58,013 nucleotides of DNA. Origin: a virus. Taxonomy: Duplodnaviria > Heunggongvirae > Uroviricota > Caudoviricetes. The DNA is taken from positions 1 to 58,013 of the IMG/VR virus record IMGVR_UViG_3300045988_029198. One strand, given 5' to 3'. This document shows, in pieces, positions 15,791-43,739 of this stretch (positions within the stretch are counted from its first letter, which is position 1; the number at the start of each line of letters is the position of its first letter). A program made the translations under genes and the position numbers. Under the pieces are notes generated by a model. It was not told where the DNA came from. It made no database searches and saw nothing but the letters and a program-made list of their open reading frames with translations.

Positions 15791-15852
15791 TGTGGTTAAC
15801 CTTTTCACGAAGCATATACACAGTTTAACACGGGTCTAAAAAGCGACAAACG

Positions 15853-15900
15853 TTTAAAATAATTCTTGACGGATTACACAAGGACGTGTAACCTACAATC
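15853..15900 (+). promoter_or_regulatory. conserved promoter module copy (TTTAAAATAATTCTTGACG) with extended leader shared with the copy at 33201
   Basis: -35 TTGACG about 15866-15871 with AT-rich UP-like element; ~70 bp nearly identical to 33201-33272 including GGAGG RBS. Confidence 0.55.
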
Positions 15901-15924
15901 AACAAAACAACGGAGGGTTACAAA

Positions 15925-16104
15925 ATGGCTACTTTCATCATTCTTTTCTTAATCGGTGCTGTATATCTGATCCCAGCACTCATCGCGATTAACGTTAAAC
16001 ATAAACAACAAACAGCAATTATTTTACTTAACATCTTTGCGGGTTGGACATTCGTCGGTTGGTTAGGTGCGTTAATCTGGTCTGTGTTAAAAAGCGACAA
16101 ATAA
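15925..16104 (+). CDS. small membrane protein, superinfection-immunity-like (Imm_superinfect-type)
   Basis: 59-aa ORF below track cutoff; GGAGGG RBS 7 nt upstream; sequence AIILLNIFAGWTFVGWLGALIWSV; stop is 1 nt before HE1 start. Confidence 0.55.
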   Translation: MATFIILFLIGAVYLIPALIAINVKHKQQTAIILLNIFAGWTFVGWLGALIWSVLKSDK

Positions 16105-16105
16105 G

Positions 16106-17017
16106 ATGAGTAGGAAACGTTTAACCACAGAAGAGTTTATCACGCGTGCCCGTGAAGTTCATGGACACAAATACGATTACTCGCTAGTGGAGTATGTGAA
16201 TTGGCGCACACCTGTGAAAATCATCTGTCCTATACATGGAGTGTTTGAACAAATTCCTAATAATCATTTAAAAGGACGCAAGTGTTTATTCTGTGCAGGA
16301 AATCAACAATCAAATACCAATGAATTTACCACAAGGGGGCGCGAAGTTCATGGGGGTAAGTATGGTTATTCGTTGGTGAAATATAAAGACTCTCGGGCCA
16401 AAGTGAAAATCATTTGTCCGATACACGGAATGTTTGAACAACGTCCATATAGTCACTTGCAGCAAAAAGCAGGTTGCCCACAATGTGCTTGGGAACAACT
16501 GTCTGAACAAAGACGTTTATCCGCCGAAGAATTTATTACCCGTGCTCGCGAAGTTCACGGGGACCGTTACGATTATTCGTTGGTGATGTATGTTAACAAT
16601 TCCACCTCTGTAAAAATCATCTGTCCTGAGCATGGGATGTTTGAACAGGCTCCGAACAATCACACTTCAATGAAAACCGGTTGTCCTCGGTGTTCACAAA
16701 CAGGTTTTAACCCGTCAGAACCCGGTACACTCTACGTGTTAGCTGACGATAAAAAGTGCCCTACTCTGCTTAAAGTCGGTATCACAAACGACTTAAAACG
16801 GCGACTACGACAACTACAACGCGAAACAACACACCCAGTGGTTAAACTCGTGTCGTACCCGTTTCCACACGGCGCTGATGCTTACAAACTGGAACAAGAG
16901 GTACACAAGGTCTTCCGTGAACTTAATGCGCGTCTCAAAGGCTTTGACGGTGCTACAGAGTGGTTTAAATACTCTCCTGCAATCCTCGACTACATAAATG
17001 AAAAAGCCCGGAACTAA
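16106..17017 (+). CDS. T5orf172-domain (GIY-YIG superfamily) putative homing endonuclease with three N-terminal Cys/His repeats
   Basis: 303 aa; three ~45-aa repeats EFITRAREVHGxKYDYSLV...VKIICPIHGxFEQ...C; C-terminal LYVL...KVGITNDLKRRLRQLQ T5orf172-like core. Confidence 0.7.
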   Translation: MSRKRLTTEEFITRAREVHGHKYDYSLVEYVNWRTPVKIICPIHGVFEQIPNNHLKGRKCLFCAGNQQSNTNEFTTRGREVHGGKYGYSLVKYKDSRAKVKIICPIHGMFEQRPYSHLQQKAGCPQCAWEQLSEQRRLSAEEFITRAREVHGDRYDYSLVMYVNNSTSVKIICPEHGMFEQAPNNHTSMKTGCPRCSQTGFNPSEPGTLYVLADDKKCPTLLKVGITNDLKRRLRQLQRETTHPVVKLVSYPFPHGADAYKLEQEVHKVFRELNARLKGFDGATEWFKYSPAILDYINEKARN

Positions 17018-17038
17018 CCGGGCTTATGTTTATTTTTC
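17002..17038. terminator. rho-independent terminator at end of HE1
   Basis: hairpin gcccgg-aactaa-ccgggc flanked by A-run and T-run. Confidence 0.65.
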
Positions 17039-17732
17039 TTCATCTCGACAACACGTGCAGACCGCAATGCTACCAATAATTTCCATAGGAACTGTACATC
17101 AACGTTGTACACCCGTGCGTAACGTTCACAGGCAACCCAATCACTATTTATCAAATCAAGATAAGCATACCAATAAAAAACAGCATCAGGTCGCAATTCA
17201 GGACGTTTCTGTACAACAACCGGAACAGATATACCACGTGCAGCCGCCCCTTGTGTAACCCAGTCCAGGTCGTCCCCGTCTGTCTTATCGTTCCACAAGA
17301 GGAAGTCGATCAGTTTTTTTCAATCTGTTTTTCCCATTCGTCCTGGAAGAATGCGGAATTAATTGCGAACTGAATAACACGGCTGTAGATCACCTGACCG
17401 AAACGTTCATCACTTAACAGTTCAATAGCTTCTTCAACACTGAATGGTTCCGGTTTGTCATCTTCACCAATCAGTTTCCAGTCCAGCATAAGAACGTTAG
17501 CCACGAACTTAACACCTTCTGGTGTATATTCCTGATTCCACAGTTTTTCAAAGAAGTTTTCAGACAACACACCGTTCTGTTTTACATAGTCCGCGACTGT
17601 TACGTTATATACCTGGTTAGCGGTGTTCAGGTTCAACACGGTGATACTGAAATTTTCATTTAAAATCAGTTCAGCAGAAGACTTCAGCACCAGTGGAGAA
17701 AGTGCTTTTTTCAGATGGTCAAACTTTGACAT
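17014..17732 (-). CDS. tail assembly chaperone GT fusion product via programmed -1 frameshift
   Basis: Slippery heptamer A_AAA_AAC at 17313..17319 (minus strand) just before the G stop; the -1 frame stays open to the stop at 17014 (track ORF 17014..17298). Confidence 0.5.
17310..17732 (-). CDS. tail assembly chaperone (G-like)
   Basis: 140 aa immediately upstream of tape measure gene; ends ...EWEKQIEKN on slippery run. Confidence 0.6.
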   Translation of the reverse strand: MSKFDHLKKALSPLVLKSSAELILNENFSITVLNLNTANQVYNVTVADYVKQNGVLSENFFEKLWNQEYTPEGVKFVANVLMLDWKLIGEDDKPEPFSVEEAIELLSDERFGQVIYSRVIQFAINSAFFQDEWEKQIEKN

Positions 17733-17792
17733 GGTTTTTACCTTTTATGTAGTAGACGATTAGATAATAATAGTTCTGTACAAATTACGCAA

Positions 17793-17817
17793 CAAAAAAG
17801 CCCGGCGTTAACCGGGC
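17793..17817 (-). terminator. rho-independent terminator downstream of major tail protein gene
   Basis: hairpin gcccgg-cgttaa-ccgggc followed by U-run on minus strand. Confidence 0.6.
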
Positions 17818-17837
17818 AACCACTACCACCCACCATG

Positions 17838-19295
17838 TCATGCTGTAGGCAAGTACGGGAACAAGCTGAAACCAATCATAAAGCCAATCGATTCTTCTTC
17901 GTGAGCATTACCACTGACAGTAACTTTCACTTTTTCACCAGTTGCCAGGTTCTTAGAACCGTCGCCCAGCGTCATCGCAGGAATGTTAACCACGATTGCA
18001 CCATCACCGTTTACCCCAGCAAGTTCGAAGTTGACTGTTGCGTTGTTACGGATCGCAGCCAGTACAGCACCGTCCGTCATCACCGTTTCAGTTTCCATCG
18101 TGATTTCCAGGTTGCCGATGTTAGTAAACGCAGCACCCATCACGCCCAGCACGTTTTCGCCTGACACGTTGTTGTTCACTGTGACAGTAACGTCTTTCAG
18201 GAACGTACTGAGACCACTATCATCAATCCCGGTCAGTCGTACACGGTTCAGGTTCGTTACGGTGTTGTACGCTTCGTTAGCCACGAATTCAATATACCCG
18301 GAACCTGGTAGCGCGGTTTCTGACGGTGCTGACAAGTCTTGTACTACAAACGTCAGATCCATTGTCATTTTTTCAGTCAACGGTGCGTTGATTGTCATCT
18401 GGTTTGCAGCTACAGCACGCGCGTATTCATAAATAACAGGTGTCGTGTTGTAACGTGCTTCCATTGTGTATTCAGTTTTCACGAACTCTGCAGAATCAAC
18501 AGGAACGTTTCGAACAAAACTGGAAACAAATAAACGTACAGTTTTACCCGTACCTTCTTCAGTGGTGAATTCACTGTTAGCGAGAGTCAGAACATGATCA
18601 CCAACCATAGTCACACGGGCCATTTTACTGGTTACGGACTGTGTTAGACCATCAATATAAATATACTGTCCCGGTACTAAACCCAATGTGGAAAAATCCA
18701 GGGTGGTAGACGTCAACTGACCATTACTGTTAACAGCGATGTCACCAGACGCTGCAGCATACCCCACGAGATATAAACGAGCTTCAGCAGGCGGTGACGC
18801 TTCAGCAGTAAGCCCTGACACGTTGATAGCAGTAGTGGTACTATCAGCGCCTACAGTTTTCAAACCGTTGTTTGCAGCCAGTGTAAAACCTGTCGCATAA
18901 ACAAGAGCACCTTCAGGTAATGCCGCATCAAGAGTAGTAACGTTATAAGCATCAGCGCCAACACTGGTAACGTCAATATCAATTGCACCAGCACCGACCC
19001 ATTTACTATAAAGGAATCCGTCACCCCAGTACCGGAATGTATCAAGTGTCAGGTCTGTCTGAAAACCCGGTGCAACTTCAACGTTAGTTACTGTGCCTTT
19101 ACGTGCAGATCGGTCCGTACTGATCGGTGTACGCTGAGTCTTTGTAATATCAGCACTGTAAGAACTGATTTCATTCGGTTGTTGAACCGTCCAGGGTGTA
19201 CCAGAAACAGGTTCACAGACTTTTGCTACACTGAGTCGTGTTGCGTTTACATCAGCAGCAGGTGTTTGCGAACATTTAAAAATTGATTCAGCCAT
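17838..19295 (-). CDS. major tail protein
   Basis: 485 aa, Thr/Val/Ala-rich beta-type sequence; upstream of tail chaperones and tape measure; own terminator. Confidence 0.65.
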   Translation of the reverse strand: MAESIFKCSQTPAADVNATRLSVAKVCEPVSGTPWTVQQPNEISSYSADITKTQRTPISTDRSARKGTVTNVEVAPGFQTDLTLDTFRYWGDGFLYSKWVGAGAIDIDVTSVGADAYNVTTLDAALPEGALVYATGFTLAANNGLKTVGADSTTTAINVSGLTAEASPPAEARLYLVGYAAASGDIAVNSNGQLTSTTLDFSTLGLVPGQYIYIDGLTQSVTSKMARVTMVGDHVLTLANSEFTTEEGTGKTVRLFVSSFVRNVPVDSAEFVKTEYTMEARYNTTPVIYEYARAVAANQMTINAPLTEKMTMDLTFVVQDLSAPSETALPGSGYIEFVANEAYNTVTNLNRVRLTGIDDSGLSTFLKDVTVTVNNNVSGENVLGVMGAAFTNIGNLEITMETETVMTDGAVLAAIRNNATVNFELAGVNGDGAIVVNIPAMTLGDGSKNLATGEKVKVTVSGNAHEEESIGFMIGFSLFPYLPTA

Positions 19296-19331
19296 TGTTC
19301 TAAGCCTCGTTTGATTGCAATCATTCGTAGT

Positions 19332-19754
19332 TTAATATATTTCTTCGTATTCGTAACTAAGTACGACGTTCGTTAAAAACCACGCGTTATCACGACCCTG
19401 ATGACGAATATCAACACTCGTGTAAATTAACGGGCGGTCCTGCCAGACACCTTCAAATAATTTTGCAAGCCGATCCGCAATATCAATACTCAAAGTGTCC
19501 ATACCATACTGAGCAGGTGTACGCACCTGTAAAAAAACGTTTCCTGTTCTTAAACGACGACGACAAACACCTTCCCCACCCAGCGTGGTTATTGTCCACG
19601 GACCGGGATTGTGTGTCAGAATCAGACCGGGTTTTTCTGTAGTGTCATCAGGGAGTTGACCAGAAGCAATTGTAAATCTGTCAGGCGTAATTTCCACGGG
19701 GAGATTCGCCAGAACGCGATTATAAACAATTCCTGAAACATCTGAGAGTGTCAT
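19332..19754 (-). CDS. tail terminator / tail completion protein (putative)
   Basis: 140 aa directly upstream of major tail protein gene; synteny only. Confidence 0.4.
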   Translation of the reverse strand: MTLSDVSGIVYNRVLANLPVEITPDRFTIASGQLPDDTTEKPGLILTHNPGPWTITTLGGEGVCRRRLRTGNVFLQVRTPAQYGMDTLSIDIADRLAKLFEGVWQDRPLIYTSVDIRHQGRDNAWFLTNVVLSYEYEEIY

Positions 19755-20182
19755 CGCTGATTAAACCTCACCATTATTCCGGCTTTTAATATAGCACGTT
19801 CGACAAACCCGGAAGGTGTCTGTGTACTGCTACCACCATTGAGAACCCCAATGTAAGGAACGTTATTAGTAATGTGCAGTTCCTGACCATTAACTTTAAT
19901 ACTGCTAATAGTGACCGTATCCTGTTCGATACGCGCTTTACTGGCTTCAACATTACCTGTTGGTGTATCAGGACTATTAGCGGGTTGCCCCTGATCGAAC
20001 CACCAGTTGTTGCTTGCCCAGCCACTCAATATTGGTGTACCATCAGGAGGCTCACTTATGAGTATGTTACGTAGTGTTAAAACATATCTAATGACTTGAC
20101 GATCCGTAAAATCTTGTAAGTCGGCTTTTATGTCTTTAAACACTCCAGTAATACGATTTATATCATTGATTTTGCTAGTCAT
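19751..20182 (-). CDS. head-tail connector/neck protein (putative)
   Basis: ATG at codon 23 of track ORF; synteny only. Confidence 0.4.
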   Translation of the reverse strand: MTSKINDINRITGVFKDIKADLQDFTDRQVIRYVLTLRNILISEPPDGTPILSGWASNNWWFDQGQPANSPDTPTGNVEASKARIEQDTVTISSIKVNGQELHITNNVPYIGVLNGGSSTQTPSGFVERAILKAGIMVRFNQR

Positions 20183-20204
20183 TGACAAACCTAAAGGTAG
20201 AAAA

Positions 20205-21101
20205 ATGGGCGGTAAAAGACTAACCAAAGAACAACTAGAGCATAACATAAAAGATATTTGTCAATCAAAAAATTACAAATTTATAAAATGGAAAGACGGG
20301 TTTAAAAACAAAGAATCACGAATTATTTTATCTTGTGTTACACACGGGGAATGGGACACTAAATGTTATCATTTTTTGAATGGTTCTGGTTGTCCGATCT
20401 GTGGTGGAACACGAACCACAAAAGGGTTAAGAATTGCACAGATTAAAGACAGTTTAACAAATTCTAAATCAAAGTTTATTAAATTTAAAACTAATTTTCA
20501 AAATGGAAATTCTGTTTGTTTGCTGAGCTGTATTGATCATGGTGGATGGGAGACAACAGTCAATAGACTAATCTTTACATCTGTTGATTGCCCGTTGTGT
20601 ATAACGAATAGACAGAAAACTAAACAAGAACGAGAAATTGAAATAACAAATAGATGTAAAGAAACAGGGTTGTTTTTTAATAAGATATTCGACGAACATC
20701 CGACATGGAAATCTAAAATATCATTAAAGTGTTCAACGCATGGTGATTTTGTTACAACAATTAATTCTTTTCTTAGTAAACAAAAAGGTTGTCCAAACTG
20801 TAGTAAAACAGGGTTTAAAGCTGGTAAGTATGCAACACTTTATGTCTTGCGGTCCACATGCGGTCGTTACGTTAAAATAGGTGTCAGTAATTGTGTAGAG
20901 CAAAGAATTAATACACTTCGTAGAAAAACACCATTTGATTTTCAAGTAATAGAAAAATTGAATGGACACGGGGCAACCATTCGTTCACTTGAAAAAGATT
21001 TTCATTCTCATTTTGAATCTGCAGGATTAACCGGGTTCGATGGTTGTACAGAGTGGTTAAAATGGAATCCAAATATAACCACTCTGATACGGATGTTATA
21101 G
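20205..21101 (+). CDS. T5orf172-domain putative homing endonuclease (paralogue 2)
   Basis: ATG at codon 26 of track ORF; Cys/His repeats plus T5orf172-like core; AT-rich; opposite strand inside the tail/neck operon. Confidence 0.7.
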   Translation: MGGKRLTKEQLEHNIKDICQSKNYKFIKWKDGFKNKESRIILSCVTHGEWDTKCYHFLNGSGCPICGGTRTTKGLRIAQIKDSLTNSKSKFIKFKTNFQNGNSVCLLSCIDHGGWETTVNRLIFTSVDCPLCITNRQKTKQEREIEITNRCKETGLFFNKIFDEHPTWKSKISLKCSTHGDFVTTINSFLSKQKGCPNCSKTGFKAGKYATLYVLRSTCGRYVKIGVSNCVEQRINTLRRKTPFDFQVIEKLNGHGATIRSLEKDFHSHFESAGLTGFDGCTEWLKWNPNITTLIRML

Positions 21102-21476
21102 TTATACCGCTCCAACAGGATGAATAAATGCCATATCATCCCCTAACAATCGTGGGTTTTGACGATCAAGAAGGCGATATTCTTTACCACGTTCATCAAC
21201 CACAACATCACCCCGATCAGGAACAAATCGTGGTTCAAAACTCTGACTATCCATAATTACCATCGTTGTGGTTATTCTGGTCATAGTAGTCGGATCCCAC
21301 TTTTCTAATGGGTAAATATAACCACGACACGTATGCGATTCAGTAACGGTTGTACCCGGTAATGTAGGATTAGACGGGTTGGGAACTGTTATCACACGTT
21401 TTACCGTCAAATCCTCACCTACTTCAGCAAGTGCACGAGTAACACCTTTCAGGACACTTTGACGTTTGTCTGCCAT
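21102..21476 (-). CDS. virion structural protein (head-tail joining candidate)
   Basis: 124 aa; ATG is second codon of track ORF and overlaps upstream stop. Confidence 0.4.
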   Translation of the reverse strand: MADKRQSVLKGVTRALAEVGEDLTVKRVITVPNPSNPTLPGTTVTESHTCRGYIYPLEKWDPTTMTRITTTMVIMDSQSFEPRFVPDRGDVVVDERGKEYRLLDRQNPRLLGDDMAFIHPVGAV

Positions 21477-21886
21477 CACCGTTCACCCTCGTTAAGTGCA
21501 CGACCACCGCTTTCAAGTGTTACAGGTGGGTTGTCGAACTGACCACGTTGAATAGCAGGTTGCATACCAGCGCCAGTTAATGTAGCTCCACCAACACCCA
21601 TAAAACTACCTAACAAACCGCCACCTGAATCAGCGCCAGTATTAATACGTAAAATAAAATCTTTTTTAAGTTTATTCCAGGCGTCTGCTGACTGACTACT
21701 GCTGAGTGAGATCGGACCTACTTTAATGTCAGTATCGTTGCTGGCAATAGACGCCATATAATCACAGAGAGCGACGCAAATACTGAGAGGATTTGTATAA
21801 CCGTTGTCAATGTACCACTGAATTTGTTCATCAGTAACATCAGGGACACTGATCAAATAACGAATACCTTCAACTGTAATAGCCAT
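21476..21886 (-). CDS. virion structural protein (head completion candidate)
   Basis: ATG at codon 59 of track ORF 21476..22060 with AGGTGA RBS; the track N-terminal extension runs through a structured leader and is unlikely to be coding. Confidence 0.4.
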   Translation of the reverse strand: MAITVEGIRYLISVPDVTDEQIQWYIDNGYTNPLSICVALCDYMASIASNDTDIKVGPISLSSSQSADAWNKLKKDFILRINTGADSGGGLLGSFMGVGGATLTGAGMQPAIQRGQFDNPPVTLESGGRALNEGER

Positions 21887-22059
21887 GTGATCACCTGTGA
21901 GAAATGTTTTCGTTATATTAGCACGAAAAAAAGCCGTCTTAAACAGACGGCAAATGGCTCTGGGTGATAATGAGGGTTTTACATAACTGGTCATCCACAC
22001 CTGACGTCCCAACATACCCCTATGCGTGACACGTGAATAACCAGTTATGTAAAACGACA

Positions 22060-22432
22060 CGCAGTTCAGGATGTTTCACAACATGCTTTACCCACGATTT
22101 GCGGCTTTCCCGCCAGCAAGATAAGGATCACCTCCTTATCAGCGAGTGTTTGGGTTGTGGCGGTTGGAATCGAACCAACTCCCATCGGTGCGATGCCGAT
22201 CGCAGTACGTGCAGCGGTCCGCTACATGACTAGTATTTTCACGGTCGCCTATCTGCTAGCTCGCCATTGAGCTTCACCACAACGGAAAGAGCACTGGAAC
22301 TTGGGCTGAGTATTACCGCATGTCTTTCGACTTCGAACCAAGGCTGACATTACCCAATGCTCTTACCTGTTATGTGCCGGTTACGTTTATCCGGCGTCTT
22401 TCGACCGATTAAGTGATAGTGTCTGCTATGCA
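22060..22432 (-). other. ~370-nt untranslated leader / candidate ncRNA with tRNA-like 3' fragment and anti-16S-complementary motif
   Basis: No ORF on the transcribed (minus) strand; T-arm-like GTTGG-TTCGATT-CCAAC plus 7-nt acceptor-like strand at about 22155-22179; TAAGGAGGTGATCC at 22125-22138 (minus). Confidence 0.35.
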
Positions 22433-22480
22433 GTTCTGTCACTGACTTAACAATAGGTCAAGAATAGTTATATGTCAAGC
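22433..22480 (-). promoter_or_regulatory. variant copy of conserved promoter module (ATAACTATTCTTGACC) driving the leader and downstream structural genes
   Basis: Two TTGAC boxes on minus strand about 22456-22478 with TATTGT/CAGAAC -10 candidates. Confidence 0.4.
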
Positions 22481-22811
22481 CTTGTGATTCACACCATTCA
22501 GCAGCGGCACTTTTACTACTAAACGATTCTGAATTCATCGGCATACCCATAACATAAACATTATAGGTTTTTGGCGCATCACGTCGGATTTCAGCCGCAG
22601 TGGTTGATGCCGATTCTTCGGTTGCTACAGTCACTGGTTCTTCAACAGTCGCAGTAGCTGGTTCAATGTGGCGCATACGCACAAGGGCATTTAAAACAGC
22701 CGGGATAGCTTTTGATGTTGATACTTTATCGCCAGCGGACATCTGTTTACCGTTCCACAGCATCGGGCGGGTGAAAACATATTTCAGTGACGGATCATAT
22801 GAATTACGCAT
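22458..22811 (-). CDS. hypothetical protein (head module)
   Basis: ATG at codon 14 of track ORF; GAGG RBS; directly downstream of the MCP terminator. Confidence 0.45.
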   Translation of the reverse strand: MRNSYDPSLKYVFTRPMLWNGKQMSAGDKVSTSKAIPAVLNALVRMRHIEPATATVEEPVTVATEESASTTAAEIRRDAPKTYNVYVMGMPMNSESFSSKSAAAEWCESQGLTYNYS

Positions 22812-22826
22812 GATTTTAACCTCATG

Positions 22827-22853
22827 AAAAAAAGGGGCAGCATAAGCCACCCC
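22827..22853 (-). terminator. imperfect hairpin plus U-run immediately after major capsid gene (probable leaky terminator)
   Basis: GGGG..GC-ttat-GC..CCCC followed by TTTTTTT on minus strand, 16 nt before next start codon. Confidence 0.4.
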
Positions 22854-22874
22854 TTAATGATACCACAGTTGTTA

Positions 22875-23894
22875 TTAAACCGCGTCGTAGAACAGAACGC
22901 CCAGGTCAGGTGCAACCATCTGAACATCAATGGCAAATTCCGCTTCAACGAAATTACCACGACGACCTTCAACACCCGGATAGGTGCGGATAGACGGACC
23001 GTTGTTAACACCCAGATCGATGAACTCGTTCCACACGAAGCCAGCAGCAGCAACAGGTTTCATGTTACCAACAGTCGGTTCAACATAGTTGAGCATCAGC
23101 ACACCAGTTTTAGCAAACTGGAAGTCTGACAGTGGATTGCCGTCACCGTCTTCAACGCCATCAGCAGCCATGTTGACCACTGACTGCATGATTTCCAGTT
23201 CGTCAACTTCCAGCAGTGCGGCCAGTGCCTGTTTAGTCACGATGCCGGGGTTCTGAGTGGTAGAACCACCGTTAATACGGTCAATAACAGCCGGGCTACG
23301 GGTCAGTGCGTCATACACGTCCAGCGTCATCAGTGCTTTGTTCCAGCGACGACCACCGGATGCCAGAGAGAACGCAACACGACGTGACAGGATATCACCA
23401 ATCGGATCGGCATTCGCATTAGACCATTTCAGGAATTGACCCGCGGACGGAGACGTGTCTTTGCCCTGGAAATCAAGACCCCATTTACCAGCAGTCAGGA
23501 ATTTTTCAGCAAAATCCACTTCTTTGTTGATCAGCAACGCATCTGTGGTTACTGCTGACGCTTCCATATCCAGTTGCTGACCGTTCTGAACGTTTGCACG
23601 TTTTTTGTCAGAAATAAAGATACGGATCGCATCGTCATCAACGGTGTAACCCTGGTTTTTGGTTTTGTAACCAATAGTATTAGCAACACCATCTTCGGCA
23701 CGTTTGGAGTTAACCGGACGACCGAAATAACCTTTCGGGTAAGTCAGGAATTTACCAGCAGCCTGGTTAACAGGAACTACCGGGAAATAACGAGTACCGA
23801 CAAACAGTGACGTATCCTGCCAGTAACTTACAGAAAAGTTAGACAGGAATGTATCTGGTGCGCCAACGTCGCGAAAATTCTGTTTGTAACTCAT
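22875..23894 (-). CDS. major capsid protein
   Basis: 339 aa; AAGGAG RBS 8 nt upstream; follows scaffold and decoration-like genes and precedes terminator. Confidence 0.7.
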   Translation of the reverse strand: MSYKQNFRDVGAPDTFLSNFSVSYWQDTSLFVGTRYFPVVPVNQAAGKFLTYPKGYFGRPVNSKRAEDGVANTIGYKTKNQGYTVDDDAIRIFISDKKRANVQNGQQLDMEASAVTTDALLINKEVDFAEKFLTAGKWGLDFQGKDTSPSAGQFLKWSNANADPIGDILSRRVAFSLASGGRRWNKALMTLDVYDALTRSPAVIDRINGGSTTQNPGIVTKQALAALLEVDELEIMQSVVNMAADGVEDGDGNPLSDFQFAKTGVLMLNYVEPTVGNMKPVAAAGFVWNEFIDLGVNNGPSIRTYPGVEGRRGNFVEAEFAIDVQMVAPDLGVLFYDAV

Positions 23895-23897
23895 CGG

Positions 23898-24308
23898 TTA
23901 TGCTCCTTTAGAATACGGTGCAATAAGTAATGCGGTAACTACCTGGTTTTCTGCAGTGGCTGCAGTTTGAGAAATAGCCACGACCAGTTGTGTAGCAGTA
24001 GCGGTCTGGAATCGTCCGTCAGCACCAACAGCAAGCTCAACACCTGTGGCGAACGTTGCAGCAGCTTTTACTGGTACGAATTTTTCTTTTTCGTTTACCA
24101 GGTCGAAGAATACACCAGCAGTGGCATCATCAACAGCTACACCGTCGATACGACCGCCAGCCGTTGGGAGTTTGTATTTAGGTACACACTGGTTAGTGTC
24201 ACCTAAACTGGTATCCAGAACAAGACCAACACCTGCCGAAATAGCCACGGATGCAACGGCACGGGTCGGGCGCTCATAGTTCCAGTAGATTTTGCTGTTC
24301 TTAGCCAT
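23898..24308 (-). CDS. head decoration protein (putative)
   Basis: 136 aa Ala/Val/Thr-rich, between scaffold-like gene and MCP; synteny only. Confidence 0.4.
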   Translation of the reverse strand: MAKNSKIYWNYERPTRAVASVAISAGVGLVLDTSLGDTNQCVPKYKLPTAGGRIDGVAVDDATAGVFFDLVNEKEKFVPVKAAATFATGVELAVGADGRFQTATATQLVVAISQTAATAENQVVTALLIAPYSKGA

Positions 24309-25573
24309 TATTCGTCACCTCGCATCGCTTCGATTGCTTCCTGACCTTTTTTAGTTGCAGAAACTGCCTGCATAGCCTGGGTGCGTGTTTTACCCGGATT
24401 TGCTTTCAGCCATTCGTTGATCATGTCTTCCAGTGCACTGGAACCTTTACCACTGCCGTTCGGCGCGGCTGGCTCTTTACGTGCTTTCCAGAGTTCGTCG
24501 GCCTGTTTGAGTTTTTCAACCAGAAAGTTACGATCCGCTTCCGGTAAACGCTCAAGAGTCATGACCATCTGGGTTTTCTGTACCATTTCACCCGGAATGT
24601 GTGCGAAATCAGTGTTCACGGTTTTTTCAGCTTTCGCCAGTGCCGCTTCAGTCTGTGCTTTGCGAAGTTGTTCGTCCTGAGATTTCAGAACGTCGTACAT
24701 CGGACCAGCTACAGATTTCTGAACAACCTGACCAGCAATCGTGGTAAATGATTCATCAGCCTGTTTAGCCATCGTCACGAGGGCGTCGCGAGCAGTCGCA
24801 TCCATTTTACGGAATGCTTCCTGATCAGATTCAGGCAGAGAATTATGATACGCCTTATGGACGTCGTTCATCTCAGCCAGGGCTTTGTATTTTTCCAGTT
24901 CCAGTTCGGACATTTCGATTTCCTCTGCCGTTTTTAAAACTTGAGGTACTTCCTGGTCCGGGTGTAATTTTTTCCACGCGGATCGGACTTTGTTTTTCAC
25001 ACCTGCTAAATCGGCTTCAGGGATTTCAACTTTGTTACCGCGATAACCCGGACCTAATGCAGCAAGTGCAGCGCTTACAATACGCGCATCAGGTTCACCG
25101 CCAGGGGTAGCTGTTAAACGAAGTTTCCAGGTTGAAGGTTTTTCTGGATCTGGTACATATGCATAATCAGATGCCGGGAAAACTTCACCATCTTCAGTTT
25201 TGCCACCTTTCGCTTTATTCATCGAAATACCAGCGGCCTGTTGCAACATTATAATATATTCATTTACCGCGTCACGCAACGCTGCTTGTTTATCGGTAAT
25301 AGAATCATCTTTTGCAATATCCTCTGCTGCTTCATAAAGCGCATCGTTCAACATCCACGAATTAGAGAGGAAATCACGAACTTTCTGTTCAAGTTCTTTT
25401 TCAGCCAGTGCTGCACTAAATGTTGACTTTAAAAGAACAACAGCAGGCGGTTCTGAATGTGATTTAAGAACAAGAGCATTTGCTCCCTCGTGAGCAGGTT
25501 TTGTCACGCCGGACAGAAAACCGATCTTCATCGATTTAGCGCGGCGTAAATGATTAGTACCATCTGTACGCAT
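24308..25573 (-). CDS. head scaffolding protein (possibly protease-scaffold fusion)
   Basis: 421 aa, charged coiled-coil-rich C-terminal half; upstream of decoration and MCP genes. Confidence 0.45.
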   Translation of the reverse strand: MRTDGTNHLRRAKSMKIGFLSGVTKPAHEGANALVLKSHSEPPAVVLLKSTFSAALAEKELEQKVRDFLSNSWMLNDALYEAAEDIAKDDSITDKQAALRDAVNEYIIMLQQAAGISMNKAKGGKTEDGEVFPASDYAYVPDPEKPSTWKLRLTATPGGEPDARIVSAALAALGPGYRGNKVEIPEADLAGVKNKVRSAWKKLHPDQEVPQVLKTAEEIEMSELELEKYKALAEMNDVHKAYHNSLPESDQEAFRKMDATARDALVTMAKQADESFTTIAGQVVQKSVAGPMYDVLKSQDEQLRKAQTEAALAKAEKTVNTDFAHIPGEMVQKTQMVMTLERLPEADRNFLVEKLKQADELWKARKEPAAPNGSGKGSSALEDMINEWLKANPGKTRTQAMQAVSATKKGQEAIEAMRGDE

Positions 25574-25983
25574 TATTCCACATCCTCATAATATGCAGTT
25601 CCACCGATACTATATCCCGTATATTCACCAGTCTGAAACTTTTTCAAAACTTCGTCATCAGTTATCAACGTACCAACAATGACGCCTGTCTGATCCAGTT
25701 TATCAACCAGTCCAAAACTTGCCGCAATGTCTTCAGTCATCGGAAACGCAAACACAACTTTCCCAACAGGTTGTTCATTGTGCATATTGTCCATGATGCG
25801 CTGATCAGAATTCATGAAATCCAACCATGCTTTCAGAGTGACATCCTCGGGAAATTGCTCGTTGTCCGTGTCTGTGTAAATTTCTAACTGACCTGTCTCC
25901 TGATTACGTTTTTTACAGATACTACCCCAACCGAATACCATACGTAGTGAGTTGTCAACCTTATTAACTTTTACGTTAATCAC
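25573..25983 (-). CDS. hypothetical protein (head module)
   Basis: track ORF 136 aa; GTG start overlaps upstream stop (GTGA). Confidence 0.4.
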   Translation of the reverse strand: MINVKVNKVDNSLRMVFGWGSICKKRNQETGQLEIYTDTDNEQFPEDVTLKAWLDFMNSDQRIMDNMHNEQPVGKVVFAFPMTEDIAASFGLVDKLDQTGVIVGTLITDDEVLKKFQTGEYTGYSIGGTAYYEDVE

Positions 25984-26327
25984 GGGGATTGTCCTCGTAT
26001 TGTTTCAACATGACTAAATTCTAACATTTCGGATGAATAATTGCACTGGTGATACACGCTGTTTACAACGTTACCGAATATCTCAGAAAGATTCTTGATC
26101 GGTTCAACAGCAGTCGTTACTGGTTCAACAGCAGTCGTTACTGGTTCAACACCGTCCAGATGTTCAGCGACAACCTGGAAAAACACTGTGTTAGTTTCAC
26201 AGTCAATAATAACCACTGTGCTGGAAATATCTTCAACAATGCTGAATGAGTAGTCGTAACGATCACCGTGAACTTTACGGGCGCGACGAATGAATTCGTC
26301 TGTAGCAACTCTGATGTTCGGATCCAT
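25980..26327 (-). CDS. small protein with one homing-endonuclease-type repeat and a 7-aa tandem repeat (possible HE remnant)
   Basis: ATG at codon 11 of track ORF; EFIRRARKVHGDRYDYS matches the N-terminal repeat of the three T5orf172 genes; VEPVTTA x2 from a 21-bp DNA repeat at 26101-26154. Confidence 0.45.
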   Translation of the reverse strand: MDPNIRVATDEFIRRARKVHGDRYDYSFSIVEDISSTVVIIDCETNTVFFQVVAEHLDGVEPVTTAVEPVTTAVEPIKNLSEIFGNVVNSVYHQCNYSSEMLEFSHVETIRGQSP

Positions 26328-26354
26328 ACCTTCAACCCTTCTTGTTTTCTTGAC

Positions 26355-26400
26355 CACAGGGTAGTTGTGTCGATGTAATCCGTCAAGAATTATTTTACGT
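26355..26400 (-). promoter_or_regulatory. conserved promoter module copy (minus strand)
   Basis: reverse complement of cgtcaagaattatttta at 26381-26397 gives AAAATAATTCTTGACG. Confidence 0.55.
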
Positions 26401-26484
26401 ATAGATTCATGAGAAGTATGCGACTCCCTATACCTTTTAAACCTCTTCTACTTACAACAACTTTTACTACTTATACCACTCTTC

Positions 26485-26587
26485 TATTTATTTATGTTTT
26501 CTATGTTATCTATAAAAATATAATAAAAAGAATAAGATAGAGAATAGTCGGTTAAAAAATAAACATGACGCGATCTATGAATCTATG
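26485..26587. repeat. ~95-bp AT-rich dispersed repeat, copy 1 (second copy 43476..43576)
   Basis: ctatgttttctatgttatctataaaaa.ataataaaaagaataagatagaga...ggttaaaaa.taaacatgacg..atctatg shared at ~85-90% identity between two intergenic regions. Confidence 0.8.
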
Positions 26588-26590
26588 ATC

Positions 26591-26680
26591 TACTAATACA
26601 CGTTCTGTATTAGCTGCAACTCAAAATCATGAAACCTATGTAAAACCATGTGTAGCTAATACAGAACGTGTATTAGCTGT
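26591..26680. promoter_or_regulatory. iteron/operator cluster upstream of plus-strand promoter
   Basis: two inverted copies of TAATACA-N5-TGTATTA flanked by AGCTG (about 26593-26614 and 26655-26678); AGCTAATACA motif shared with 43255-43700. Confidence 0.6.
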
Positions 26681-26682
26681 AT

Positions 26683-26730
26683 CTTTAAAATAATTCTTGA
26701 CGGATTACAGATGGTAGGGTATCTTTATCA
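26683..26730 (+). promoter_or_regulatory. conserved promoter module copy
   Basis: CTTTAAAATAATTCTTGACG, -35 at 26697-26702. Confidence 0.6.
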
Positions 26731-26771
26731 CGGGAAGCAGCGATGGGTTGCTTATGAACGAGGGTGTGAAA

Positions 26772-27155
26772 ATGGGAATGTATACCGAATTAGTGTTGAA
26801 GTGTCAGATTAAAGAAAATGTACCTGTGGATGTGAAAGCTGTTATTGCACATATGTTCTGTGGTGAAAAAGAACCAGAGAAACTACCACAACATAAGTTT
26901 TTCAGTCTCCCCAGATGGAATTTTATTGGTAGTTGTAGCAGTTTTTATCATCACCCGGAAGTAATAAATAGTTGTCCTAAATTTGATTTCACCGATACTC
27001 AATATATTTTTAGTCGTAGCGATATTAAAAATTATGATGGTGAGATTGAACAATTTATCGATTGGTTGAAACCGTATATTGATACTGAAGATGGTGCATG
27101 CATTGGTTGGACTTGGTATGAAAAAGACTTACAACCAACATTAATCATTAAATAA
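26772..27155 (+). CDS. hypothetical protein
   Basis: ATG at codon 9 of track ORF with GAGGG upstream. Confidence 0.45.
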   Translation: MGMYTELVLKCQIKENVPVDVKAVIAHMFCGEKEPEKLPQHKFFSLPRWNFIGSCSSFYHHPEVINSCPKFDFTDTQYIFSRSDIKNYDGEIEQFIDWLKPYIDTEDGACIGWTWYEKDLQPTLIIK

Positions 27156-27170
27156 CTCCGAGACACTAAA

Positions 27171-27506
27171 ATGAAGAAACTGATTCTATGCGCATTACTG
27201 ACAACAACCCTGACAGCCTGTGATAATGCTGCTGATGTTGCCAGTCGTAACGTTGCAACCGCTGCAGCTAACTTTGAAGTAAATCGTCGTATCGTTTTCT
27301 ATAACGTTCGTAACGGTGAGTATCTTTTGTCTATCGAAGGTCGTTGTGCCCGTGAGAACACTAGCAAAGAGATCGAAATCACCTGTAAAACTGGTCCGAA
27401 CGACGTTAAGAAACACTTTATGGGGTTAACCACGGAGGTAACTTATTTCATTGAACAAACAGACCCCCTCGCCAACAGATCAGTATCGTTATCGTGTTAC
27501 TTTTAA
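27171..27506 (+). CDS. lipoprotein (signal peptide and lipobox LTAC); superinfection-exclusion candidate
   Basis: 111 aa, MKKLILCALLTTTLTAC N-terminus. Confidence 0.5.
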   Translation: MKKLILCALLTTTLTACDNAADVASRNVATAAANFEVNRRIVFYNVRNGEYLLSIEGRCARENTSKEIEITCKTGPNDVKKHFMGLTTEVTYFIEQTDPLANRSVSLSCYF

Positions 27507-27558
27507 CCCGATGCAAATTCTCCCGGATCTAAACATCCGTCACCTTGGGGAATAACCT

Positions 27559-27720
27559 ATGGGTAAAAAGAAACGGAAACAGCCTGTCAAGAAAGAACCA
27601 TATAACCCACGACATGTTAATGAGTTATGGGCTAAAGACGTGGACGACTTTACTGAATCTGACTGGAGTAAAGTCACAAGGTTGATCGTTAAATTAAGAC
27701 GATTATCGAGGTACGCGTAA
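27559..27720 (+). CDS. small basic protein (53 aa)
   Basis: ORF below track cutoff; stop overlaps next start (TAATG). Confidence 0.35.
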   Translation: MGKKKRKQPVKKEPYNPRHVNELWAKDVDDFTESDWSKVTRLIVKLRRLSRYA

Positions 27721-27995
27721 TGTGTGACTGTATGAAAAAAGTTGGTGACGAACTTCAAAAACGTCTGATGGTAAAAGTACCAGTAGGTTCGGAAGTCAGC
27801 ACTAACCTGTTTGATAAAGTTGGCTGGGATAATCAGTGTTTCAGTCTGACGTCTGGTAAAACTCACGTTATGTTGAAATATCGTCTTGCATACCGCGCTA
27901 AAAAGAAAAACGGTGAACTGGCGAAGAACTTCACACGCCTGGAAACCAATATCAAAATGTCTTATTGTCCGTTCTGCGGGGAGAAACAGGAATGA
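27720..27995 (+). CDS. zinc-ribbon protein
   Basis: 91 aa with CDC...CPFCG cysteine pairs. Confidence 0.45.
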   Translation: MCDCMKKVGDELQKRLMVKVPVGSEVSTNLFDKVGWDNQCFSLTSGKTHVMLKYRLAYRAKKKNGELAKNFTRLETNIKMSYCPFCGEKQE

Positions 27996-28204
27996 ATAAA
28001 TTAACAGTAGAACAAGCGGTTGTGTTATCTGGTTTTACAGGGTTACTACATGGATCGTTCAACAAATTTCATGAGGGTTTGGAAAAACGAATGGGGCGTC
28101 CGGTATTTAGTCACGAATTGGGTAGTAAAGAGTTTACTGCAAAAGTCAAAGAACTTTACCGTGATGATTTCATGGCAATGCAGCCCGATAACGCCGAGGA
28201 ATGA
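27992..28204 (+). CDS. hypothetical protein
   Basis: ATG at codon 10 of track ORF, ATGA overlap with upstream stop. Confidence 0.45.
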   Translation: MNKLTVEQAVVLSGFTGLLHGSFNKFHEGLEKRMGRPVFSHELGSKEFTAKVKELYRDDFMAMQPDNAEE

Positions 28205-28437
28205 TAATGGGAATGAAACAGATTTGGGATGGTAAAAACCTACCTCCAGTTGGTTGTGAAGTGTTGATCCATCTGGCAAGTATTAACAAGTGGGTGGTAC
28301 GAACTGTTCAGGGTTATGAAATATGGCCTTCTGTTTATGAAAATGATACTGCACATCACAGGATAAACATAAAATTTGAAGATAATGTTCGTCTGTTATG
28401 TGATGTGCGACCTCTTGACTGGCGTGAACCTGATTAA
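28201..28437 (+). CDS. hypothetical protein (shares WDGxxLPPVG motif with 32498..32959)
   Basis: 78 aa; ATGA overlap with upstream gene. Confidence 0.45.
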   Translation: MIMGMKQIWDGKNLPPVGCEVLIHLASINKWVVRTVQGYEIWPSVYENDTAHHRINIKFEDNVRLLCDVRPLDWREPD

Positions 28438-28470
28438 CCCAACGAACCAATATCTTGCTTGACCACTTAA

Positions 28471-28513
28471 CCTCCTGTTGCTAATATTGAGTTAAACAAC
28501 AGGAGGTTTTATT
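28471..28513 (+). terminator. hairpin plus T-run that also sequesters the Shine-Dalgarno sequence of HE3
   Basis: 10-bp stem cctcctgttg/caacaggagg with 16-nt loop, T-run, then TTG start at 28514 eight nt after AGGAGG. Confidence 0.55.
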
Positions 28514-29437
28514 TTGACTAAACGAAAAACAGAACATGAAAGACTTTCAGAGATTTCAGAAATTTGCAAAGGTACTATTTATCATTTTGTCAGATTCTTA
28601 AATGGTTACAAGAATGCATCAAGTAGACTAATAATGCATTGTCAAAAACATGGTGAGTGGGAAACATCCTCTGATTTGATAGTGAATGGTAGAAATTTTT
28701 GTAAGAAATGTAGTAATGAGAACATAGCACTAAAAAATAGTATAGACCAAAAAGAATATGAAAAACGTATCACTAATATTTGTAACTCGCGAGGTTATAA
28801 ATTTGTAAAATGGATTGAAAATTATCATGGTGTTCGCACAAAAGCATTAATAGAATGTACTAAACATGGTCAGTGGGTGTCTTCTGGCAACAACATTACT
28901 ATAAATAAAAGTTTCTGTAAGAAATGTTATTTTGAAAATAAAAAGACACCATTACACATAAGAGAAAAAGAGATAAACGAAAAATGTTTGTCATTAAATT
29001 ATGAATTTTTGGGTTGGGTCAACGGGTATGTTAATCAATACAGTAAGATAAAAATTAAATGTCAAAAACATGGTGAATTTATAACAACACCTACAACATT
29101 ATTACATACTGGCAGACGTTGTGCAGGTTGCGCTACAACAGGTTTTAAAATCAAAAACAAAGCTAGCTTATATGTTTTAAGATCTCTATGTGGTAGTTAT
29201 GTTAAAATAGGTATTAGCAACAATGTTGAAAATAGAATAAAAATATTGAAGAAAAGAACACCTTTCGAATTCAATGTTATTGAAATATATAATTCTGATG
29301 GTAAAACCATTCGTTCACTTGAAAAAGATTTTCATTCTCATTTTGAGTCAGCAGAGTTGACTGGGTTCGATGGTTGTACTGAGTGGTTAAAATGGAATCC
29401 AAATATAACCACTCTGATACGTATAATCACGGGATAA
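28514..29437 (+). CDS. T5orf172-domain putative homing endonuclease (paralogue 3, TTG start)
   Basis: 307 aa; Cys/His repeats plus T5orf172-like core; last 116 bp ~92% identical to the 3' end of paralogue 2; AT-rich. Confidence 0.65.
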   Translation: MTKRKTEHERLSEISEICKGTIYHFVRFLNGYKNASSRLIMHCQKHGEWETSSDLIVNGRNFCKKCSNENIALKNSIDQKEYEKRITNICNSRGYKFVKWIENYHGVRTKALIECTKHGQWVSSGNNITINKSFCKKCYFENKKTPLHIREKEINEKCLSLNYEFLGWVNGYVNQYSKIKIKCQKHGEFITTPTTLLHTGRRCAGCATTGFKIKNKASLYVLRSLCGSYVKIGISNNVENRIKILKKRTPFEFNVIEIYNSDGKTIRSLEKDFHSHFESAELTGFDGCTEWLKWNPNITTLIRIITG

Positions 29438-30386
29438 CATTTATATCTTGAGGGAGAGAATAAGCAACCCTGCAACGGCAATTAATCACATTCGCTGCAC
29501 TACCGTTAGGATCACGAGGAAACATAAGTGGTCCTAACGGCGTTGAAAACGGTCTGTCCATTGGTATCCAGCCATTCGTTTCACCTGTGGAAATATGCGC
29601 GTCACGTGTCCGACCATCCTTCCTGTACAACCAACGTTTTAATAACTCGTTACTGATTGACCCTGTAACCTGCCCTTGACGAATAGCCTGGTCCTGACCA
29701 ACTGATACAGCACGAAGTGATTCAGTACGCGCTATTGTCTCTGTACGCTGTTTTACGTAACGCAAGCGTGTCTGTTCGATTATCTGGTCAATCTTCGCCT
29801 GTGATAGTTTCCCTGCACTTACAGCGTTCTTTGCACTGTCTGTAACTGTTGTCAGACTGTTCACATAACCTGCTTCACCTTTTTCCAGTGCTGATCGCAG
29901 ACGTTGAACCGTCATTTCCTGCCGTGTGGTTAACCCTATTGACGATCGAAAATCACGAGCTATCTGACGCGGATTTCGTCCAGTTACCACACCCTGGTTA
30001 ACAGCAATCTGAACAGCTTTGACTGTTTCATCACTGACTTCACGGATCAGTTGTCCGACATAGTTGTTGATGTATGTACTGACCTGTGGGGTTACCAGAC
30101 TGAACACAACCGGACCTGTCACAGCCGCTTTCGGTAGAACCTGAACGACTACACGACCTGATTCAGCGATCGCATCTTCAATAACCGGGCGCAACTGTGC
30201 ACTAAGTTCATCAGGAAGTGTTTCAAGAATGGGGAGTAACCCGGCAATACCTTGGGTTTCAATAATGTATTCCAGGTTGGCTAACGACTCACTACGACGC
30301 ACGTTTTCCCACACAACGTCCAGTGCTTCACGAATGCGAGCATCATATTTGTCTGAAATATCCGGGTATGGGTCTTTAGTAGCCAT
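29427..30386 (-). CDS. head morphogenesis protein (Mu F / SPP1 gp7-like)
   Basis: 319 aa; C-terminal RDAHISTGETNGW...NCRCRV motif; between portal and scaffold genes. Confidence 0.6.
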   Translation of the reverse strand: MATKDPYPDISDKYDARIREALDVVWENVRRSESLANLEYIIETQGIAGLLPILETLPDELSAQLRPVIEDAIAESGRVVVQVLPKAAVTGPVVFSLVTPQVSTYINNYVGQLIREVSDETVKAVQIAVNQGVVTGRNPRQIARDFRSSIGLTTRQEMTVQRLRSALEKGEAGYVNSLTTVTDSAKNAVSAGKLSQAKIDQIIEQTRLRYVKQRTETIARTESLRAVSVGQDQAIRQGQVTGSISNELLKRWLYRKDGRTRDAHISTGETNGWIPMDRPFSTPLGPLMFPRDPNGSAANVINCRCRVAYSLPQDINVIP

Positions 30387-30414
30387 AAAAAAGCCTCAGT
30401 TAACACACTGAGGC
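30387..30414 (-). terminator. hairpin plus U-run immediately upstream of head morphogenesis start codon
   Basis: stem gcctcag/ctgaggc, 8-nt loop, T-run on minus strand then ATG; GAGG of 3' arm is the only SD candidate. Confidence 0.45.
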
Positions 30415-30559
30415 CGATTATACCACGTGTTACGGGCGTGGAAGATTACGTTTTTCAGTTCCCTGAATGCGGTTCTTAACTTCGCGGATCTGTTCTTCCA
30501 GAAACTGTAACGCTTTTTGTGCTCGTTCGTAGTCTATTTCAAGTTCACGTAATAATTTT

Positions 30560-30754
30560 TCATCTTTTGTCACGAGTATAACGTCCTTTAAAACCGGGTC
30601 TGACCATCAACTTACCATTCACCACTGCGTGAAATTCACCATTGGTGTCATCCATATATTTATAAACTGTCGCTTTGTTACACCCAATCCTCCTGGCAAG
30701 TTCTGTCACATTACCATAAACGGTGGGTAGTAATTCAGAAATAGTTTGAACCAT
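30560..30754 (-). CDS. small helix-turn-helix DNA-binding protein
   Basis: 64 aa; LARRIGCNKATVYKYM HTH-like segment. Confidence 0.5.
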   Translation of the reverse strand: MVQTISELLPTVYGNVTELARRIGCNKATVYKYMDDTNGEFHAVVNGKLMVRPGFKGRYTRDKR

Positions 30755-43700: not shown

Positions 43701-43739
43701 GTTATGATTTATCCGTGGTCAAACAAGAAGGGTATGATA

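Follow-up and report, generated by a model that had tools for sequence, protein, structure and literature searches.

Three probable homing endonuclease cassettes of the T5orf172 type among the structural genes of a 9NA/Sasha-type phage of Escherichia coli

Introduction

The stretch of viral DNA described here (Caudoviricetes; IMG/VR record IMGVR_UViG_3300045988_029198, positions 1 to 58,013, all 58,013 nucleotides of which are called the window) is that of a 9NA/Sasha-type phage of Escherichia coli. Among its structural genes lie three paralogous plus-strand genes of the T5orf172 family, designated HEG1 (16106-17017), HEG2 (20205-21101), and HEG3 (28514-29437). With a probability of about 0.82, the three are free-standing homing endonuclease genes (HEGs) of the T5orf172 branch of the GIY-YIG nucleases, and the cassettes that contain them are mobile by homing. 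The observations behind this reading are the domain make-up and catalytic residues of the proteins, the base-precise presence or absence of the cassettes in related phages, site fidelity across diverged phages, a donor-type flank beside HEG2, a recoded target patch beside HEG3, and decay alleles of HEG1.

Positions 15000-31000 of the window match Sashavirus/Nonanavirus (9NA-like) siphoviruses of E. coli, Salmonella, and Klebsiella. Top matches came from the Escherichia phages KarinMuster_Bas82, PDP46, PJ16, and AVIO78A and from two “Sashavirus” assemblies, with 95-97% of positions identical across 73-85% of the query; none of the matched records contains this region in full. Junctions were compared by pairwise blastn against eight relatives (Bas82, 536P12, BDX09P1, PJ16, PDP46, AVIO78A, Sasha, and 9NA), and each of the three genes is variably present among close relatives whose backbones are 95-98% identical. 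The T5orf172/CapR-repeat endonuclease family is common in phages, with more than 800 matching records in the phage collection. Within the window, family copies are confined to four loci (the three HEGs and a relic open reading frame described below), and the other low-GC patches contain no T5orf172/CapR-type genes.

Domain architecture and catalytic residues

Each of the three proteins consists of three CapR/DUF723 stretches followed by a T5orf172/MUG113 domain, with all Pfam matches above the gathering thresholds. The T5orf172 (PF10544) scores are 53.3 bits for HEG1, 24.2 for HEG2, and 25.0 for HEG3 (cut-off 20), and those for MUG113 (PF13455) are 46.9, 34.0, and 43.6 bits (cut-off 22.3). All three also match phrog_681, “endonuclease”, in PHROGs (1e-63 to 1e-82). 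The zinc-ligand pattern C-x2-H...C-x2-C is invariant in each module of all three proteins. HEG1 is 26-28% identical to HEG2 and HEG3, and the latter two are 44% identical to each other. The initial annotation, which had attributed N-terminal Cys/His modules and a T5orf172 core to all three genes, is thus borne out by the Pfam and PHROGs matches.

An AlphaFold model of HEG2, built with 19 homologues (pLDDT, the model's per-residue confidence score, 84.6), contains a helix-sheet-helix unit three times over and ends in an alpha/beta domain, and the T5orf172 domain models as a GIY-YIG nuclease fold. A sequence search of PDB structures returned a chance match only; it took a fold search to place the nuclease domain. 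A broad tblastn search with the nuclease domain was likewise uninformative as a route to Odn of phage ICP1. In a direct alignment, Odn residues Y127, K138, G140, R148, and E180 fall in columns that are invariant in HEG1, HEG2, and HEG3, and the Y127, R148, and E180 columns are invariant in gp46 of 9NA as well; as the alignment is at 16-22% identity, this assignment of catalytic residues is moderately secure only. The E180A substitution abolishes cleavage by Odn (PMC8263062).

An Rfam search of the entire window gave zero matches, hence no intron context, and the HEGs are separate open reading frames situated between genes or at gene ends; they are therefore free-standing rather than intron- or intein-borne. 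HEG1 and HEG2 are antisense within the tail operon (the head and tail genes of the window are on the minus strand), whereas HEG3 sits at a convergent junction, co-oriented with a plus-strand cluster. The GC content is 43.3% for the window, 43.9% for HEG1, 33.1% for HEG2, and 30.1% for HEG3. The earlier description of two genes as both antisense in the structural operons and AT-rich therefore merged two different pairs: HEG1 and HEG2 are the antisense genes, and HEG2 and HEG3 the AT-rich ones. The identity of the three genes as free-standing HEGs of the T5orf172 type is strongly supported at the level of sequence, and the original assignment is upheld by domain make-up, modelled fold, and the insertion signatures described next.

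Insertion sites and flanking sequences

Insertion signatures, on which the initial annotation had staked its reading in advance, are present, and the junctions with cassette-free relatives are base-precise.

Cassette 3 and its surroundings comprise the following features.
about 28458-29466, plus strand: cassette 3 (junction sequences, relatives)
28514..29437, plus strand: HEG3, 307 amino acids, TTG start, three CapR modules and T5orf172 (Pfam, PHROGs), with an 11-nt overlap with the end of the head-morphogenesis gene
28433..28457, minus strand: original 3' end of the head-morphogenesis gene, left behind with the codons for DIGSLG and stop intact (junction sequences)
29427..29466, minus strand: replacement 3' end of the head-morphogenesis gene, supplied by the cassette (...RCRVAYSLPQDINVIP and stop, versus ...RCRVQYSLPEDIGSLG and stop in relatives)

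Cassette 3 interrupts the last six codons of a Mu-F-like head-morphogenesis gene, whose new end reads DINVIP and stop. The replacement end contains a recoded patch, AGAGAATAAGCAA, that occurs in HEG3-bearing genomes only. In this patch of 13 nt all of the YSLP codons are rewritten, and in phages of both E. coli and Klebsiella the patch goes together with HEG3: all HEG3-bearing genomes have AGAGAATA(A/G)GC(A/G)A and all HEG3-free genomes have AAACTGTACTGTA, irrespective of host genus. The first 40 nt of the flank are 45-51% identical to cassette-free relatives, compared with 93-100% further out. Among the eight relatives, cassette 3 is present in PDP46 only (99.7% amino acid identity of HEG3); further HEG3 orthologues occur in Klebsiella phage KP13-27 and metagenomic relatives (79%), always at the same site. 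In Bas82, the empty sites for HEG2 and HEG3 lie around ...GTTAGCCTTAGCCATATCAGGCAGC... and ATATCTTCCGGCAAACTGTACTGTACCC.

Cassette 2 lies in the tail operon.
20183..21101, plus strand: cassette 2, a 22-nt spacer with both divergent ribosome-binding sites, plus HEG2 (blastn junctions)
20205..21101, plus strand: HEG2, 298 amino acids (open reading frame, Pfam, PHROGs, orthologues in the same slot)
20023..20182, minus strand: co-conversion tract, the 5' 160 nt of the neck1/tail-completion gene at 19751-20182 (flank identity comparison)

This cassette is absent from all eight relatives. It occupies the slot exactly between the stop of a gene for 124 amino acids (21102) and the start of neck1 (20182), which are separated by a 1-nt gap in the relatives. 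With the cassette, the start of the neck1 protein reads MTSKINDINR instead of MAKANVNDINR. Over its proximal 160 nt, neck1 matches close relatives at 73-74% and HEG2-bearing lineages at 87-89%, whereas the remainder of the gene shows the opposite pattern (96% versus 76-82%). To judge from these flank identities, the 160-nt stretch beside HEG2 is a donor-derived conversion tract. HEG2 orthologues, all of 298 amino acids and 63-99% identical, occupy the same slot in four other 9NA-like contigs, and their lengths support ATG 20205 rather than ATG 20130 as the HEG2 start. In a metagenomic relative of a third lineage (L019, 1501-2421), the slot holds a 306-residue family member that is 40-45% identical to HEG2 and HEG3. 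The gene for gp46 of 9NA (contig L008, 5104-6000, 298 amino acids) has another location, flanked by the major tail and tail terminator genes. The tail operon thus has several cassette sites, at least one of which has been colonised more than once.

The spacer between the divergent neck1 and HEG2 starts (20183-20204) contains a near-palindrome, CCTAAAGG, that provides a short AGG-type ribosome-binding motif on each strand, so that neck1 and HEG2 may compete for one and the same piece of DNA and RNA.

Cassette 1 combines a HEG with a small cargo gene.
15833..16993, plus strand: cassette 1, small cargo gene plus HEG1 (blastn junctions, junction sequences)
15925..16104, plus strand: cargo gene for an Imm_superinfect (PF14373) membrane protein of 59 amino acids (Pfam E 3.6e-17, 62.4 bits, cut-off 27.9)
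16106..17017, plus strand: HEG1, 303 amino acids, three DUF723-type modules and T5orf172, antisense between the tail chaperone and tape-measure genes

Of the eight relatives, Bas82, 536P12, BDX09P1, and PJ16 carry cassette 1, whereas PDP46, AVIO78A, Sasha, and 9NA lack it and have about 13 nt (TTAACCATAATAT) at the same position. The stop of the Imm-type gene, annotated as “superinfection immunity protein” in Bas82 and PJ16, is 1 nt upstream of the HEG1 ATG. The HEG1 coding region contains three 150-nt direct repeats that are 67-74% identical. HEG1 is intact in Bas82 and 536P12; the PJ16 copy lacks one repeat and is cut short at 203 amino acids, and in BDX09P1 it stops at 213 amino acids. The cassette also marks a tape-measure allele boundary: between cassette-bearing phages the N-terminus of the tape-measure protein is 98% identical, against about 31% in comparisons with cassette-free phages.

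Two further observations concern the surroundings of cassette 1. The tape-measure gene (13223-15808, minus strand) exists as two alleles in phages that are otherwise 95% identical; the N-terminal 460 residues are 98% versus about 31% identical at the amino acid level, the two alleles share only the first 33 residues (87%), and cassette 1 lies at the point where they switch. A bidirectional terminator-like hairpin (AAGCCCGG-N6-CCGGGCTT) occupies 17004-17025, between the tail chaperone and tape-measure genes; it pre-exists in cassette-free phages, and the last five codons of HEG1 run into it.

Proposed homing and its alternative

According to the homing model, the three tandem CapR/DUF723 zinc-finger modules would read a long DNA site and the C-terminal domain would act as the nuclease. 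During co-infection with a cassette-free relative, the enzyme would cut the empty allele near the insertion point, and recombinational repair templated by the cassette-bearing genome would then copy the cassette together with neighbouring sequence. Recoded flanks would shield cassette-bearing genomes from their own enzyme. DNA cleavage and unidirectional inheritance of the cassettes are what we infer from these sequence comparisons.

Several points weigh against this reading, which also takes in the proposed control of HEG3 described below. Homing of T5orf172 HEGs lacked experimental verification according to Barth et al. 2023 (PMC10448857), and the literature searched contained no later experimental report of it. 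Promoter scans of HEG2 and of cassette 1 gave chance-level matches only; with no convincing promoter for either, these genes may be poorly expressed. The promoter match at HEG3, described below, agrees with the consensus at 9 of 12 positions, and its region shows no excess of such matches (5 found versus 6.4 expected). The HEG3 hairpin shows no covariation, since only two haplotypes were collected and their stems are identical. HEG2 and its flanks have diverged to similar extents in other lineages (83/73/69% versus 82-85/74-76/71-73%), which fits long vertical residence as well as repeated homing.

It is unlikely that the proteins are instead immobile, domesticated DNA-binding regulators (CapR-like) or defence nucleases (Odn-like) and that presence and absence reflect ordinary deletion or recombination: the repeated recruitment of the family to other jobs in CapR and Odn, the co-divergence of HEG2 with its flanks, and the association of HEG1 with a superinfection-immunity gene (suggestive of host-benefit cargo) would suit such a history, but the catalytic Arg and Glu are kept in all three HEGs, the donor-type flank of HEG2 and the recoded patch of HEG3 are signatures of acquisition by break repair, truncated alleles of HEG1 suit a selfish gene in its decay phase, and distant relatives such as 9NA and Sasha have clean, identical empty sites, which argues for insertion rather than many independent precise deletions.

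The HEG3 upstream hairpin

Two overlapping elements precede HEG3.
28469..28508, plus strand: 12-bp hairpin with AGGAGG (28501-28506) in its 3' arm, followed by UUUUAUUUU
28459..28487, plus strand: sigma-70-like promoter match TTGACC-17-TAATAT with an upstream TG, starting 2 nt inside cassette 3, with the 5' hairpin arm in its spacer

The initial annotation had described a TTG start whose AGGAGG is buried in a 10-bp stem at 28471..28506. The start and the buried motif are confirmed; the stem is longer, a perfect 12 bp pairing 28469-28480 with 28497-28508 across 16 nt. Its predicted stability is -19.5 kcal/mol (z -3.3), and none of 200 shuffled sequences was as stable. The AGGAGG is located 7 nt before the TTG at 28514, and the sequence after the hairpin (UUUUAUUUU) is a terminator-like U-run. 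The hairpin is a feature of cassette 3, and cassette-free relatives have no such element at the site. In KP13-27-type orthologues the hexamers are kept as TTGACT and TAGTAT and the hairpin arms are invariant, with differences in the loop and neighbouring bases. No significant Shine-Dalgarno-sequestering fold was found in the 5' regions of HEG1, HEG2, or the Imm-type gene.

The promoter match is an addition to the initial annotation. Because the 5' arm lies within its spacer, a transcript initiated at this putative promoter would lack that arm, and the predicted RNA from about position 28494 (about 7 nt after the -10 hexamer) has no sequestering fold. Read-through RNA from upstream would fold the hairpin, hiding the Shine-Dalgarno sequence, and may also terminate at the U-run that follows; a promoter inside the hairpin would yield a translatable HEG3 transcript. 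On this structural analysis, HEG3 expression is probably insulated from upstream transcription.

A serious contender, put at somewhat below even odds, is that the hairpin is mainly an intrinsic terminator for the plus-strand cluster at 26748-28437 and that its overlap with the Shine-Dalgarno sequence is incidental. The perfect 12-bp stem directly followed by UUUUAUUUU, and its position right after the stop of the last plus-strand gene at a convergent junction, are what a terminator would look like. The 16-nt loop, however, is long for an intrinsic terminator, and the terminator scan made no call here because the loop exceeds 8 nt. The hairpin also belongs to the cassette rather than to the backbone, the AGGAGG is ideally spaced for the TTG, and the KP13-27 haplotype has a different loop but retains the promoter hexamers on either side of the 5' arm. 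Termination and concealment of the Shine-Dalgarno sequence are compatible roles and not mutually exclusive.

The shared 3' block of HEG2 and HEG3

The 3' ends of HEG2 and HEG3 share a block of 115 nt.
20977..21091, plus strand: conserved 3' block of HEG2, with a perfect 11-bp inverted repeat (21049-21059 with 21076-21086)
29307..29421, plus strand: conserved 3' block of HEG3, 93.9% identical to 20977-21091

The block had been reported as 116 bp of about 92% identity; it is real, with coordinates one base off and a corrected identity of 108/115. Elsewhere, HEG2- and HEG3-type genes are 54-57% identical between lineages. Across all HEG2 and HEG3 orthologues and the third lineage, in phages with backbones only 70-85% identical, identity within the block is 83-96%. 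Thirty-four of its 38 residues are invariant across the clade, and codon identity at invariant residues is 0.38 within the block versus 0.00-0.11 elsewhere in the genes. The inverted repeat folds at -20.7 kcal/mol on the plus strand and -21.2 kcal/mol on the minus strand (z -4.4 and -6.4), and the L019 lineage carries an uncompensated mismatch in it.

The initial annotation had ascribed the block to recent conversion or duplication. Recent gene conversion between HEG2 and HEG3 inside this genome is improbable, even with 93.9% identity over 115 nt against about 55% elsewhere in the two genes, with the same codons used for 86% of identical residues in the block versus 37-49% upstream, and with T5orf172 domain swapping between HEGs reported by Barth et al. 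(PMC10448857). The HEG2 block is about equally near to its counterparts in other phages: it is 95% identical to the block of HEG2 in L010 (like L012, another HEG2-bearing 9NA-like contig), 94% to co-resident HEG3, 93% to HEG3 of PDP46, 92-93% to HEG3 of the Klebsiella phage lineage (KP13-27), and 90% to the third lineage in L019. As the co-resident copy is not distinctively closest, there is no sign of recent exchange inside this genome, and recent intragenomic conversion as the cause of the block was rejected on this pairwise identity matrix. The block tree is also incongruent with the gene tree, HEG2 of L010 being 96% identical in the block to HEG3 of the window and 86% identical to HEG2 of L012. 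The block is conserved clade-wide, and we read its 34 invariant residues and its codon usage as pointing to strong protein constraint together with either population-level homogenisation of paralogues or constraint at the nucleotide level, which explains the block better than a recent event.

A more speculative extension, and a doubtful one, is that the roughly 115-nt block, with its 10-11-bp hairpin and raised synonymous conservation, is a functional nucleic-acid element (a recombination handle or an RNA element), and that with the sigma-70, T4-type promoter-in-hairpin switch at HEG3 the cassettes carry a portable regulatory and recombination toolkit. As a recombination handle, the block would let nuclease modules and DNA-binding arrays re-assort between cassettes at different sites; as an RNA element, it would control cassette expression or stability.

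The relic reading frame and other features

A fourth locus of the family opens the head operon.
25980..26357, minus strand: relic open reading frame with a single degenerate DUF723-like module and a VEPVTTA tandem repeat, first gene of the head operon

The lone repeat module that the initial annotation placed at 25980-26327 is present; the reading frame is on the minus strand, extends over 25980-26327/26357, and has a stop that overlaps the start of an XkdF-type protease gene. The module aligns with each of the three HEG1 repeats at 35-49% (tblastn E 6e-9 to 8e-6) and keeps the N-terminal helix motif T-EFI-RAR-VHGD-YDYS. Three of its four zinc ligands are lost, and all four are lost in Bas82, PDP46, and AVIO78A. 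In most pairs, nonsynonymous differences are at least as frequent as synonymous ones, a mark of relaxed constraint; the copy number of the VEPVTTA repeat varies, and the relic is absent from Sasha and 9NA. The most fitting view of the relic is a fragment that has decayed or, at most, been re-purposed. A reading frame for 270 amino acids at 43704-44516 (plus strand), in a low-GC patch, has five tandem VARVEPP repeats that are akin in flavour to VEPVTTA.

The variable intergenic region 22061-22457 differs in close Sashavirus relatives. It contains a tRNA-like element (22155-22227, minus strand) with a canonical T-arm, GTTGGTTCGATTCCAACC; the Rfam match to tRNA-Sec scores 22.7 bits, below the threshold of 47 (E 0.036), and ARAGORN made no call. 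Positions 22154-22408 share about 93% identity with unannotated intergenic DNA that lies upstream of the gene for the major tail protein in the unrelated Skatevirus “seszw” phages of Salmonella.

Comparison with known systems

In several HEGs of phages T4 and Aeh1 (I-TevI, I-TevII, I-TevIII, and segB of T4; mobE of Aeh1), the Shine-Dalgarno sequence is sequestered in a stable hairpin only on read-through RNA (PMC2988022), and transcription from the gene's own promoter gives an mRNA without the 5' arm (Edgell, Gibb & Belfort 2010, PMC2988022). The predicted arrangement ahead of HEG3 has the same geometry. The T4 promoters, however, are late promoters that were mapped experimentally, whereas that of HEG3 is a sigma-70-type consensus match only, and the HEG3 hairpin also has a terminator-like U-run. 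The segD gene of T4 is a free-standing GIY-YIG gene that runs antisense, flanked by essential capsid genes, and for which no promoter has been identified (PMC2988022). HEG2, and partly HEG1, resemble it in being antisense in the tail operon; segD differs in its canonical GIY-YIG domain and its other DNA-binding region.

The ICP1 nuclease Odn (Gp88) shares its nuclease domain with the HEGs and is the one T5orf172 protein for which DNA cleavage has been shown biochemically (PMC8263062). The satellite protein CapR shares their DNA-binding module, and the relic resembles CapR in having a module without a nuclease, unlike CapR in having lost its zinc ligands. Both Odn and CapR differ from the HEGs in being immobile and recruited to conflict between phage and satellite.

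The closest known counterparts are the T5orf172 HEGs of ICP1 and other phages. Barth, Dunham & Seed 2023 (PMC10448857) described tandem CapR/DUF723/DUF4379 modules joined to T5orf172, variable presence, in-frame repeat deletions, and frameshifted alleles. They also found HEGs adjoining essential structural genes and sitting at boundaries of genetic exchange, with nuclease and binding regions swapped (PMC10448857). Domain architecture and variable presence between near-identical phages are the same here, as are decay alleles with repeat loss and positions beside structural genes and at exchange boundaries; paralogues in that family likewise have nuclease domains in common but unrelated DNA-binding regions (PMC10448857). 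The host group differs, being here the 9NA/Sasha-type siphoviruses of E. coli, Salmonella, and Klebsiella; the text of Barth et al. 2023 (PMC10448857) mentions no 9NA-like phages, hairpins, or promoters.

The gene family is thus already described (Barth et al. 2023), and nothing here is conceptually new. Here, closely related cassette-free phages fix the exact insertion points. Homing by the T5orf172/CapR-repeat family has so far been inferred from genomics only, and close E. coli relatives (95-98%), including the public BASEL phage Bas82, are without two of the three cassettes. With empty sites, donor tract, and recoded patch defined to the base, homing, target recognition by three-module zinc fingers, and the hairpin switch become testable in E. 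coli. The cassettes reshape structural genes, giving a new N-terminus to the neck protein and a new C-terminus to the head-morphogenesis protein, and they carry cargo in the form of a superinfection-immunity gene and a linked tape-measure allele. Relative to the ICP1 T5orf172 HEGs, then, the cassettes of this 9NA/Sasha-type phage have empty sites, a conversion tract, and a recoded patch that are resolved to the base, and one of them bears Imm-type cargo.

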